Shown: one piece after another, positions 7,876 through 29,910 of the stretch | Layout of the letters: each line of letters starts with the position of its first letter | Numbering within the stretch: position 1 is the first letter of the stretch | From: Octopus vulgaris | Taxonomy: Eukaryota | Assembly: GCA_951406725.2 (NCBI GenBank) | Contig: OX597815.1 | Location: forward strand, 1,736,001-1,800,000 | Reading direction: 5' to 3' | Length of the DNA: 64,000 bases | The notes under the pieces: model-generated | Database searches by the model: none | What the model was told of the DNA's origin: nothing | Seen by the model: the letters and a program-made list of their open reading frames with translations, nothing else | Made by a program: the position numbers and the translations under genes

Positions 7876-8136
7876 TTTTGGTAGTGATGTTGGCCTTTCT
7901 CCAGTGTATGGTAAGTCATCGGAATCGGACCCATAGGAGGTGGTCTCGTTTAACGAGACCAAAGGGCTTACTTTAGTTTTATGTATGGAGTTGTGGTTCT
8001 CAGGGGGCTTCAGCAAGATACTCACAGCCCGTAATCCATTGATAATGTGTGGAGGTAAGTTAGTTTCTGCCAACATGTCTGTGATTAATCCATGAGCTTC
8101 TCCGATCACAGTCACTTCGTAATTGGCAGTGGAACT
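7876..8136 (-). CDS. PDE3: Internal coding exon of a PDE3-family (cGMP-inhibited) cyclic nucleotide phosphodiesterase, N-terminal regulatory region
   Basis: Acceptor ttttccttgttgtttcag| and donor AAA|gtaagt; 261 bp, phase 0/0. Translation [45 protein letters not shown]...SDSDDLPYTGERPTSLPK matches the recalled PDE3A/B segment ([33 protein letters not shown]...SDSEE...AIPK). Catalytic exons would lie left of the window. Confidence 0.88.
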
Positions 8137-9051
8137 CTGAAACAACAAGGAAAAGAAAAAAAACGAAGGCATTAGACTGCAACATCTGATAGCGCTTTTT
8201 TTTTTTGTCTCATCCTATAATAAACATTCAAATTGTTGGTGAGAAGGAGAAGTGTGTGTGTGTGCACAGGTGAATGAAGGTTTGTATGCGTTAGGTGTGT
8301 TTATTTGAATTGAATCTTGGTTCAGAGTGACAGGTGAGAAAAATGAGAAACAAACGATAAAGAAACAACCAGAGCTGAGGTAAAAATATTAAGGATTTTG
8401 TCAGAGAATAAATAAAAGAAGCTGAAATGTTGAAGAACAGTTTTAGAAGCAGATTTATATTGTTGTTATTCCATGCATCTTGGAGAATGGCAGCGAAGGA
8501 ACATGTGGGGAGATCTGCAATAAATGGATGAGGAGGAGAGTGATTTGTATAGATTATATCTTCATGAAATGAAGATATGTAACAACAGAGAAAATTACAT
8601 CGTTTAATTGATGATTGCACCCTAAATTGCTTCTGTTGTGCTGAAGACAAAGGCAGAGGATCTGAGTCACAGCTATAAATCCAAAAATTTATGCTGACAC
8701 AATGTTATGAAGGTCACCCAAAATAGAGGTCAAATTCAAAGCAAACTGAAATAAAATTTGTCACACATGAACGCATAGAAAAAGAAAACAGAGAGAATTG
8801 AAACTCAGGACGACATCAGCAGACAATGAAAGAAGAAAAAACAAACAAATTCTGGGTCAAATTTAGTTTTCTGCTAAAAAAATTTTAGGAAAAAATTATT
8901 GAATTATGAGGAAAGCATTTCTAATTAAAACATAATTCACTGTTGAAATGCTTAAATACTCGTTTCTATATTTCTGGGAAGATTTCCATGTAAGACCGGT
9001 TCAACAACTTAATTCTAATTTTGAAGTAATTATATAATGTTTCTTCAGGGT

Positions 9052-9549
9052 CAGTGGTTCTCAACCGCTTTACCTCTGAACCCCTTTGATTACTGTTTTA
9101 CTCAGATGGACCCCCATAGCCGTTCAGTGTTTAAAAACTAGTTTTCTAGAAACTTCTTTCAAAATTCCTATTTTGCTCTTCACACACCAACTTGTGTCGG
9201 CTGAACTGCGTAAAACTGCCAGAGAAAGGAACTTCACTGTTTCTGGCGATAAATACATCAAAAGTAACATTTTTTCATGGGCTCTTAATATATTGTGAGT
9301 CCCAAATTACACTTCGATCGTTGTACAAAACTGTAGATGAACTGTTTACGAAGTATAATCACTTGTTTTCACGAATGTACTAAAGAGATTTGCTCTGATA
9401 TTCTCATTTAAATATGAATAGGTAAATACAGGCGGGTTTGGGCGGTTTGGTCACATTAACCAAAATTTTTTTCGGGCGGCTTTGGTAATGAAAGGGTTAA
9501 TCTTATATGGACCCTAAGGGGTTATATGGATCTAAATTGAGAACCATTG
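9052..9549. mobile_element. hAT-like MITE with a nested piggyBac-like end
   Basis: Termini CAGTGGTTCTCAA...TTGAGAACCATTG; internal ...gtaatgaaagggttaa at about 9485-9500; no clean TSD. Confidence 0.55.
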
Positions 9550-10574
9550 CTTGAGGCAAAGATCACATTTAAAATGACCAGTCTTGGAGAAAAGAGTGTA
9601 ACTAATAAGGAACCCCTTTTATTTTACAGTTGATGTTCCTGTCTTTCAAATCACAAATCACATTTCCAAAGATTTTATAGAATGACATTTCCTTCTAAAC
9701 TTAAATGAAGAAGAAGAAGAAGAAGAATGCTTATGTAATTTAGGTTCCCAAATTGTAGCAGAAGAACCGAAGTAATAATAAAATTCAGGCTCAGTAGAAA
9801 GTTGCATGCTTGGCTCCATTCCTATATAGAGGCCCCCCCCCCAAAAAAAAAACCATCACAGGACATCAGAGCAGAGGATAGGCCTGTGTGTGCGGGGGAC
9901 GTGAGCCTGGCGTGTGATAGTATTAATGGTTTACAGGAAACATATTTAGCATTTTATGCTTTATAAAATATACAATTGTTCTGGCAAATGACAGGATTAT
10001 ATAAAGGCTGAAACATTTTGTACTTCTGTTCATTCACCTCATCAGTATTAGCAAAAAACAAAACAAAAAACATATGTATATTTATATACATGTGTGGAGT
10101 ATATAGGTGTATAGAATGAGTTTTGTCAGCTGCCATAAAGTAGAAGATGTGTACTCTGAGTGTTCAGTTTGATTTAGCACTAAAACTCTGACTTGAACTG
10201 CAAATGGCAAGTGTGGCGTTGAGACTCCCAATTGAAGGCAGACACAAGTGGTTTCTGCTTGAGTGGTTGGAGGGGGGGGGATTAACACAGAAAATGAAAA
10301 AAGAAAAGAAGAAAAACTTCTGCCATCACTTGGAAAAAAAAAAAATTAAACTGATGGAGTCTCCTCTTGTGGCTGTTTCTAGAATAGACAAGCTTGTGGA
10401 TTGGGATATTGAGCAAGGATTCCATAAGCTAGGTATTCCATCATCGAGAGGGGGAGCGGTCAGAGAAATATAAAAATGAAGAAACAACCCCGATCAAGGA
10501 TATTGGTACTTTCCAGTTGAAAAATGAAGGAACGATTAGAGTGGAATGTATATGCATCACATAGTTGCATGCAT

Positions 10575-11289
<715 letters not shown>

Positions 11290-11429
11290 GGGTTGGTGCA
11301 TAATTAACAACTGTTTTATAATTTAATTTACAAAAGTTTTATTTAAAATTCAGAAAACAAAAGTCATTAAATATGCACCAACCCAATATATACACACACA
11401 TATATATAATGTATATGTATATATGTATG

Positions 11430-11484
<55 letters not shown>

Positions 11485-12138
11485 GTAATGTATATACAAG
11501 TGTATATATGTATATAATGTACATAAGTATGTATAAATAATATACATATCTATCTACCTCTAAATAAATATATGTGTATGTATATATATATATATAAACA
11601 CACACACATTAATTCCCTCAGGAGAGATCTTAGGCAATTATTTCTGCCCCGTTAATTCCTTTATATCCTATGTTGATATAAGTAACACTTTTGTTATCAT
11701 TTCTAGTTAAGAGAAGGGTTTAGTGGATTAAATTGATCTCAGTACTTGGCATTGACCCCTAGGTGAGATTTGAACTCAAAATGTTTTGTTTTTCTGCTGC
11801 TTTACTGATTCTACGAATTTAATAATTAAGTAAAATGGTTTTAGATAAAAAATCTTTAAAAAAAAAAAATTTCACAGACACAACGGAAGAGTCTTCGACA
11901 GAAAGAATAGCCAAATATCCTTCAAACTATACCTGACCGTTTTCAGAGAAGAAAGGTCACACCAGACAATGGAGTTCTTAATGTAGACAAAGATGGGGTG
12001 GTCATGGCTAGAATATTTTTAACCTCAGGTGACTGCTGCTGGACCATATCAACTTAACCCTCAAGGAAAGGATCTATATTAAGAGTTACAGAATTGGAAA
12101 TTTTCAGAAATGCACACAAATGACATCAAAGCACTCAC

Positions 12139-12156
12139 CTGTATACAGCTACCCAT
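12139..12156 (-). CDS. Candidate alternative first coding micro-exon of PDE3 (MGSCIQ)
   Basis: Strong Kozak gccATGg and consensus donor CAG|gtgagt; phase 0, in frame with the 8136 acceptor. Confidence 0.6.
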
Positions 12157-12675
12157 GGCCGTAGAATCTGCTCTCTCTCTCTCTCTCTCTCATACACAAA
12201 AAGTGGAATTCCTTAAGCAGAGTAACAGTTTAATGAGATATTGACTAATAATAACGAGTGTAATTGACTTGAGATATTAGCTGTGTTGAAGAGAAAAAGA
12301 GCCGATGGCACGTTTGGCATCAATGAAGCCGTTCTTGAGGCCTGGGAACAAAACAAGAGCTATTCTCTGTTTTGTTTGATTTCTGATATGAAAGCAAACA
12401 CATTAAGTTGTTTGCCCTTCACAGTGAAAGGAGATCTGCACTTGACTCTTCTTTAATCCATCCAGAGAAACCAGCAACTGGCAGGAAACACAGGCAACAA
12501 CTAAACAACCTGCTAAAGGTACCTTAAAATGTCATTGTTAAGGTATAACCCACCCCTCAACCCCCCCGACCCATTTCTCACAGGTACTTTATTTCCTGTA
12601 GGGAATATCAAAATTAAAACTATCATTACAAATAGTTAAATAACTCATGTGGCATTAAATAGTCTATATATATAT

Positions 12676-12930
12676 ATAATTATTAAAATTATAAATTAGG
12701 CTATCTACGAGATACCACCATGCTGAAAATAGCAGCCATGAACCTACTCTAAAACCACCTTAAGTTTTCATACAACAACAGTCGGTTCATGGCTGCTATT
12801 TTCAGCATGGTGGTATCTTGTAGAGACCCTAATTTATAATTTTAATAATTATTACCTTTGAAGTTATTTTTTCCATGCTGACCCCTTGATAGGTTCGTTA
12901 TTTTATTTTAAATTAACGATCTTATCCTTA
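12676..12930. mobile_element. Repeat with about 69-bp inverted arms (12676-12744 / 12784-12852); related copy at about 25750-25995
   Basis: gataccaccatgctgaaaatagcagccatgaacc and its reverse complement 40 bp later; flanked by (TA)n. Confidence 0.55.
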
Positions 12931-29063: not shown

Positions 29064-29910
29064 AAGCTGGACTTAAGAAGCATCAGATGTGGTGTGCAAG
29101 AGAGACGACTGCGCTGGTATGGACATGTGGTGTGAATGGATGAGGACAGCTGTGTGAAAAAGAGTCACACCCTAGCAGTTGAGGGAATCTGTGGAGGAGG
29201 TAGACCCAGGAAGACTTGGGATGAGGTGGTGAAGCACAACCTTTGAACATTGGGCCTCACCGAGGCAATGACTAGTGACCAAGACCTTTGGAAATATGCT
29301 GTACATGAGAAGACCTGGCAAACCAAGTGAGACCATAAGCTGTGGCCTATGCATACCTTTCTTCCGTTGGACACTAAACTTTGCTTGCAAAGACCTGTTG
29401 AGGCAAGTGAAATCACAATCAAAATAAAATTTGCTGATGTGACCGATGACAGCACCACCTGACAGGCACCCATGCCAGCGGTACATTAAAAGCCTCATCC
29501 GAACGTGATTGTTGCCAGGGCCACTGACTGGCTCTCGTGCTGGTGGCATATAAAAAGCACCATTCGAGTATGATTGTTACCAGAGTCGCCTTATTGGCAC
29601 TTGTGCCAGTGGCATGTTGAAAACAACATTTGAGCAAGGTCGTTACCAGTGCCCTGTGCAGGTGGCACATAAAAAACACCATTTGAGCGTGGCTGTCACT
29701 AGAACAGCCTGACTGGCCCACCTGCCGGTGATACATAAAGGCAGCCACTACACTCTCGGAGTGGTTGGCATTAGGAAGGGCATCCAGCTGTAGAAACTCT
29801 GCCAGATCATGGCTCCAGCCTGGTGTAGCCATGTGGATCACCAGTCCTCGGTCAAACCGTCCAACCCATGCCAGCATGGAAAGCAGACATTAAACGATGA
29901 TGATGATGAT
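29064..29910 (+). mobile_element. 5'-truncated RTE-clade LINE (ORF C-terminus, long 3' UTR, (GAT)n tail)
   Basis: Translates KLDLRSIRCGVQERRLRWYGHVV*MDEDSCVKK..VEGICGGGRPRKTWDEVVKHNL*, with the RTE signatures RLRWYGHV and GRPRKTW; in-frame stops present; ends ccatgccagcatgg...aaacgatgatgat. Confidence 0.85.

Follow-up and report, generated by a model that had tools for sequence, protein, structure and literature searches.

The location of a phosphodiesterase (PDE) determines where cAMP is cleared. PDE3 has been described either as held at membranes by transmembrane loops or as partly soluble, and the mammalian PDE3 isoforms differ only at the N-terminus, where the short ones have neither the hydrophobic loops nor the upstream phosphosites (PMC5872358). 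Lipid anchors are familiar from other PDE families. The alternative N-terminus of PDE2A3 targets the enzyme to membranes via myristoylation and palmitoylation (PMC3169605, PMC7590001), PDE9A1/2 have a myristoylation pattern in exon 1 (PMC1647287), and PDE8A and Pde9a are among the proteins with measured myristoylation (PMC10696250). A search of the open-access literature, outside which most subscription papers lie, returned no acylated PDE3 and no paper on an octopus PDE3. The words 'myristoyl' and 'palmitoyl' are absent from PMC5872358, and 'myristoyl' is absent from the first 300,000 of the 708,272 characters of a large PDE review.

Here we describe a candidate alternative first exon of the Octopus vulgaris PDE3 gene, which would give the enzyme a short leader with a predicted acyl anchor. 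PDE3A1, PDE3A2, PDE3A3, and PDE3B belong to the same family as the octopus gene and share with it the principle of isoforms that differ at the N-terminus. In mammals, the short forms result from downstream starts in the same frame and gain no new residues, whereas the separate octopus exon would add a new leader. The octopus candidate would resemble PDE2A3 in the use of an alternative N-terminus as a dual-acyl membrane anchor. However, PDE2A3 is a GAF-domain PDE2 that has been tested experimentally and in which acylation adds an anchor; the predicted octopus form would replace a polytopic transmembrane anchor. PDE8A and PDE9A are myristoylated, as predicted for the octopus form, but belong to other PDE families.

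The window analysed is a 64,000-nt stretch of the O. vulgaris genome (G000:C2:1736001-1800000). Its shared PDE3 exon (Table 1) is 100% identical over 87 residues to P0002, a record named O. vulgaris cGMP-inhibited phosphodiesterase, and the other named matches of this exon are PDE3s or hypothetical proteins. The junction at 8136 is also present in P0003, an unnamed Logan-derived protein that is 92% identical over the shared exon. The remaining PDE3 exons and the catalytic domain lie beyond the window start, with the catalytic-domain exons at C2:1.711-1.716 Mb on the same strand. This domain is a class I PDE catalytic domain (PF00233), the best matches are named cGMP-inhibited PDE3, and the long form has a hydrophobic N-terminal region. 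The assignment of the host gene to PDE3, made earlier from the letters of the window, is supported by the identity to P0002 and by the catalytic domain downstream. The P0002 model follows the exon located about 8.0-8.55 kb beyond the window start (L004 and neighbours) only to about -8359, and P0003 and other molluscan proteins align over the same exon to about -8550; P0002 may use a premature donor there or may represent a shorter splice form.

The annotated first exon encodes residues 1-281 as a single exon at C2:1991175-1992017, 247 kb upstream of the shared exon. Between these exons lies an intron of 247,038 nt, and the candidate sits within it, 4.0 kb upstream of the shared exon. Hydropathy of the annotated N-terminus peaks at residues 61-206. 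Exon 1 also carries the PKA/14-3-3-type sites RRRSSS and RRTSLP, which would correspond to S292-294 and S312 of human PDE3A (PMC5872358), as judged by spacing in a turtle sequence. Two further sites, RRSLPP and RRMSTSTW, are found downstream of the shared exon.

Table 1. Features of the octopus PDE3 locus, in window positions.
Feature	Position	Strand	Basis
Shared PDE3 exon, 87 codons, residues 282-368 of P0002, phase 0 at both ends	7876..8136	-	sequence, protein match
Polypyrimidine tract and AG acceptor, common to the annotated transmembrane isoform	8137..8160	-	sequence; junction present in P0002 and P0003
Would-be intron, 4,002 nt, GT...AG	8137..12138	-	predicted splice
Splice donor CAG/GTGAGT, 8.8 bits; its CAG is the Gln6 codon	12133..12141	-	donor scoring
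Coding part of the candidate alternative first exon, six codons MGSCIQ (Gly2, Cys4, Gln6), phase 0	12139..12156	-	sequence, donor and chance analysis
Start context gccATGg	12153..12159	-	sequence
Candidate 5' UTR, single-copy, in-frame stops upstream	12157..12548	-	copy-number and ATG scan
(AG)10 microsatellite, just past upstream ATG 12193	12171..12190	-	sequence

On the minus strand, the candidate reads gcc (12159-12157), ATG (12156-12154), GGT AGC TGT ATA CAG (to 12139), and gtgagt (12138-12133), which agrees with the preliminary description of a Kozak-type start and a consensus donor 18 nt apart. The ATG is the sole one in 12548-12150 with a purine at -3 plus G at +4. An in-frame ATG, stops upstream of it, and a phase-compatible donor are all present. 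The 18-nt coding stretch ends in phase 0, as does the shared exon, so that the in-frame join from 12139 to 8136 with Gln at position 6, also proposed in the preliminary description, holds for the frame, with the junction itself predicted. The acceptor tract ending at 8137 contains 18 pyrimidines in 20 positions. Over 422 nt upstream of the donor, the sequence is single-copy save for the (AG)10 microsatellite. Taken together, the MGSCIQ codons, which sit in the first PDE3 intron, likely form the coding end of an alternative first exon, and we regard a real exon here as probable.

The candidate 5' UTR contains five out-of-frame upstream ATGs (12535, 12461, 12403, 12320, and 12193), which may damp translation if the UTR is 400 nt long. 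The frame opened by ATG 12193, at the edge of the (AG)10 microsatellite, runs over 12193-12149 on the minus strand and overlaps the main ATG. A change in the length of (AG)10 would shift this frame; one extra unit would bring it in frame and bury Gly2. A G-rich run resembling GC/GT boxes occupies 12572-12550 on the minus strand and adjoins the edge of the contig cover at 12548, with AT-rich sequence at 12640-12700. This run is possibly an internal promoter. A possible 29-nt microexon starting at 12167 was discarded, with 0 pyrimidines in the 20 positions upstream and a length that is not a multiple of three.

The leader was compared with the N-myristoyltransferase motif MG[^DEFRWY]X[^DEKR][ACGST][KR], in which K/R at position 7 is not obligatory (PMC9018777). 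It conforms at Gly2, Ser3, and Ile5, fails at position 6, where Gln lies outside [ACGST], and has no K/R at position 7, which would be Ser7 from the shared exon if spliced. Given the mismatch at position 6, the leader was not filed as a canonical N-myristoyltransferase substrate. Cys4 lies within positions 3-5 beside Gly2, which is the layout of dually acylated N-termini such as those of PDE2A3, RNF11, G-alpha-i/o, and the Src family. In a model heptapeptide, Cys4 is efficiently palmitoylated, and moving Cys to position 4 directs it to plasma membrane and endocytic compartments in mammalian cells and to the plasma membrane in Drosophila S2 cells (PMC9018777). In the same paper, Arg, Asn, Phe, or Val at position 6 leaves the G-alpha-o heptapeptide largely cytosolic, with Asn6 abolishing membrane binding; Gln is not among the residues tried. 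Of the myristoylation sites measured in HeLa cells, 12/75 fall outside [ACGST] at position 6 and 0/75 have Gln6 (PMC10696250 supplements 2 and 3, counted by eye). The mouse sites include Gln6 in 1/58, namely Slc25a42, which is listed as myristoylated (PMC10696250 supplement 3, counted by eye). The accessible part of PMC7048800 adds nothing further on Gln6. The earlier caution that Gln6 weakens the prediction was therefore sound, since Gln is both outside the motif set and rare in the measured sites. The Gln6 codon is at the same time the CAG of the donor, which suggests that splicing and acylation place competing demands on one position in a six-codon exon.

Two unrelated proteins, RNF11 and flotillin-2, have the same layout of Gly2 plus Cys4 as the octopus leader. 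RNF11 is described as carrying myristate on Gly2 and palmitate on Cys4 (PMC7697665), and it appears in the measured list with Cys4, Lys6, and Ser7 (PMC10696250 supplement 2). It thus shares with the octopus leader a non-canonical residue 6 followed by Ser7, but this residue is Lys rather than Gln. Provided that the exon is real, we consider acylation of the leader somewhat favoured.

The main competitor to an acyl anchor is that the exon is real and that Gln6 makes a poor myristoyl-transferase substrate, which would yield a largely soluble PDE3 without transmembrane segments, comparable to mammalian PDE3A2/A3 and to the molluscan short isoforms that do not start with MG. Several points agree with such a product: Gln6 is found in just 1/133 listed sites, 19/20 molluscan short records have no Gly2 start, and PDE3A2/A3, which lack the hydrophobic loops, are partly cytosolic (PMC5872358). 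Moreover, the donor CAG explains Gln6, and the start context, with its G at +4, partly explains Gly2. However, the pairing of Gly2 with Cys4 would then be coincidental, acylation occurs with a non-canonical position 6 in RNF11 and Slc25a42, and chelicerates keep full-motif leaders at the homologous junction. We judge the soluble product unlikely, though the strongest of the alternatives. The reading we prefer, tentatively and at somewhat less than even chances, is an alternative first exon joined in frame to 8136 that yields a short PDE3 with predicted Gly2 myristoylation and Cys4 palmitoylation.

The comparative evidence concerns 48 hand-picked records of NCBI origin with a non-transmembrane leader. 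Near-duplicate isoforms, Logan/ENA intron read-throughs, deuterostomes, and the chelicerate records P0188, P0153, and P0138 were left out of this set. In lophotrochozoans and chelicerates, the homologous junction accepts several alternative N-termini. An MG start, with the leader joined at this junction, occurs in 11/18 chelicerate records from nine species (P0154, P0189, P0191, P0195, P0201, P0209, P0211, P0216, P0219, P0223, and P0224). Named examples are Parasteatoda XP_015904147.1, Argiope XP_055946632.1, Limulus XP_022244169.1, and Ornithodoros XP_064490059.1. The leaders have 7 residues in four spider species, 31 in Limulus, and 18 in four tick species, where a cassette may or may not follow. 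Each of the 11 agrees with the myristoyl-transferase motif at all six positions, carries K/R at position 7, and lacks Cys among its first six residues. A Gly2 leader at the junction is, at the level of database sequences, a conserved feature of chelicerate gene models, and these leaders offer a firmer prediction of myristoylation than the octopus site.

Elsewhere, MG starts were fewer: 3/28 lophotrochozoan records (two Lingula isoforms and one low-quality chiton model), 1/20 molluscan short records, and 0/2 tardigrade records. The Lingula MGLQ leader is ambiguous and may be an intron read-through. Vertebrate records that begin with MGHSEW depart from the motif at positions 5-6 and were left uncounted. 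In P0285, an unnamed vertebrate-type PDE3 fragment, Gly2 and two Cys stand just before the shared-exon motif; this could be an intron read-through.

The chelicerate short PDE3 is like the octopus candidate in having a short Gly2 leader at the homologous junction instead of a transmembrane N-terminus. The two differ in that the chelicerate leaders, which are database models with predicted acylation, combine the full motif and K/R7 with no Cys, whereas the octopus leader combines Cys4 and Gln6. With leaders of 6-7 residues and the chelicerate ones free of Cys, the likeness is to be read as a parallel to the octopus site rather than as demonstrated homology. The preliminary description had proposed a lipid-anchored PDE3 isoform that replaces the transmembrane N-terminus. 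This proposal stands in so far as the annotated N-terminus has hydrophobic segments and other protostomes swap N-termini at the junction, chelicerate Gly2 leaders included; the octopus splice and its acylation keep the status of predictions.

Two further types of short leader recur at the junction in molluscs, brachiopods, and nemerteans, one with an Arg-rich R-x-x-S-E ending and one A-V-Q-C-D-like. No octopus counterpart of either was found in the intron by motif scan or by tblastn with 25 leaders (best E 0.31). Oysters and abalone have cassette exons of 9-10 residues at the PDE3 junction.

A second alternative to the preferred reading is that start and donor are a chance arrangement in a 247-kb intron that never serves as an exon. 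Donors were scored with an approximate frequency matrix. The intron contains 159 donor-like sites of at least 4 bits, and 61 of them have an in-frame ATG, which speaks for the chance reading. Only four donors reach at least 8.5 bits, and the candidate is the only one of these four with an in-frame ATG; it also outscores the annotated exon-1 donor (7.3 bits). The intron was then resampled 150 times with a third-order Markov model. An MG exon with Cys at positions 3-5 arose in 7.3%, 1.3%, and 0.7% of replicates at donor thresholds of at least 6, 7.3, and 8.5 bits, respectively, and any MG exon in 31%, 9.3%, and 1.3% (2/150), figures that flatter the site, since the criteria were set after it had been seen. 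At 4 bits, an MG exon with Cys at 3-5 arose in 29% of replicates, and the real intron has two. The antisense strand of the intron has no such exon at 6 bits or more. A tight pattern modelled on the site matched once in the 2.8-Gb genome, at the site itself, and its reversed control 0 times; by a rough estimate, about one match is expected genome-wide by chance, so that only the position inside the PDE3 intron is informative.

Other MG candidates in the intron were set aside. Those at 29473 and 117205 (donor at least 4 bits) lie in repeats, with 6 and 32 other matches in 304 kb, and the former is the second MG plus Cys candidate of the intron at the 4-bit threshold. The candidate at 150743 has a weak donor and sits in low-complexity, purine-rich sequence, and the MG at 241137 is preceded by an upstream in-frame ATG. 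A second open phase-0 candidate exon was noted at about G000:C2 1,977,012-1,977,242 (window-relative 241012-241242), 14 kb below exon 1, with a donor of 6.3 bits. Over the part tested, 304 kb contain no further copy of it, and its internal MG follows an upstream in-frame ATG inside a CA/GT repeat.

No cephalopod protein with an MGSCIQ N-terminus was present among the matches listed (68/68, the best 120 of 652, 109/109, and 37/37) or among the members listed for 30 clusters. This would be in keeping with a chance site; as no record named for another Octopus species was among the matches, the absence of a cephalopod counterpart is uninformative. Metagenome scans for the MGSCIQ exon and the shared exon gave 0 confirmed loci.

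Words of 11900-12700 were contained in 7 of 24 listed runs, 0 of which are recorded as RNA, and DNA-type runs under three organism labels contain 49-65% of the words. Four runs were mapped on 12000-12600; they come from one study, are RNA by guess only, and were chosen for containing this stretch. Each gave one contig of depth 3-5 (12297-12548, 12134-12326, 12328-12478, and 12297-12471). Within 12000-12600, a range that does not include the acceptor at 8136, the four contigs showed no joints and no loose ends, and no contig cover was found below 12134 or above 12548. The only contig that reaches the donor runs 5 nt unspliced into the would-be intron, an overhang too small to be taken as bridging, yet unlike the spliced form. 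A 2-nt gap occurs in the X2 contig near the region of (AG)10 and ATG 12193. The unspliced cover of 12134-12548 weakly fits a long first exon and fits pre-mRNA or DNA equally well, as the contigs show neither start nor strand.

The contigs would be expected of a chance site if they derive from unspliced pre-mRNA or DNA, and the missing joint, the 5-nt overhang, and the post hoc criteria point the same way. Against chance stand a donor among the four best of the intron, a strong start context, single-copy sequence, a distance of 4 kb from the acceptor, the restriction to the sense strand, and the rarity in simulation of an MG exon with a donor of at least 8.5 bits. We therefore hold a chance arrangement to be improbable.

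Finally, the donor could belong to an internal exon that begins at 12280 or 12341, being preceded by a non-coding exon and giving the same protein, or else acting as a stop-containing cassette that down-regulates the long transcript; both AG sites have pyrimidine tracts (15/20 and 14/20) and both entries hit stop codons before 12139 in the exon-1 frame, but the X1, X2, and X4 contigs cross these sites with more than 31 letters on either side and no joint, and a cassette needs no strong-context ATG in frame with the donor, so we regard this as very unlikely. With these two plausible acceptors taken into account, the MGSCIQ exon is likely a first exon.

Under the preferred reading of an acylated short PDE3, an internal promoter near 12.55-12.7 kb would start a transcript whose 5' UTR spans about 400 nt, and the strong donor would join 12139 to 8136. 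After removal of Met, N-myristoyltransferase would acylate Gly2, probably inefficiently owing to Gln6. A DHHC enzyme would then palmitoylate Cys4, which would favour the plasma membrane or endosomes rather than the ER-type location that the transmembrane form has. The product would have roughly 730-880 residues (range from P0002 and P0003) and no transmembrane segments. It would retain RRSLPP, RRMSTSTW, and the catalytic domain, and would lose the exon-1 phosphosites. We propose that, with these phosphosites lost and the anchor changed, cAMP would be cleared in a different compartment under different control.

A wider reading, which we put forward with slightly more reserve than that for the octopus exon, is that protostome PDE3 genes have an unremarked class of lipid-anchored isoforms, in which a tiny alternative first exon puts an acyl anchor in place of the transmembrane, PKA/14-3-3-regulated N-terminus. 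Chelicerates would use myristate and a basic residue, and the octopus myristate and a reversible palmitate on Cys4 despite the Gln6 imposed by the donor. The choice of promoter would then shift PDE3 between the cAMP pools of the ER and the plasma membrane. Firmer ground is offered by the comparison across animals, namely annotated spider, tick, and horseshoe-crab PDE3s with full myristoylation motifs at the junction. If the octopus exon is real, it adds an isoform missing from the single O. vulgaris record returned and provides a natural test of how well Gln6 is tolerated beside Cys4. The surprise would be moderate, as the acyl-anchor strategy is familiar from PDE2A3, PDE8A, and PDE9A. All likelihoods given here are matters of judgement.

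Elsewhere in the genome, G000:C24:27.90-28.85 Mb contains about 12 PDEase_I matches on both strands, one of them broken in two. Eleven of these span the whole domain without introns, in open frames of 923-1168 aa, and the cluster forms a tandem expansion of apparently intronless phosphodiesterase genes.
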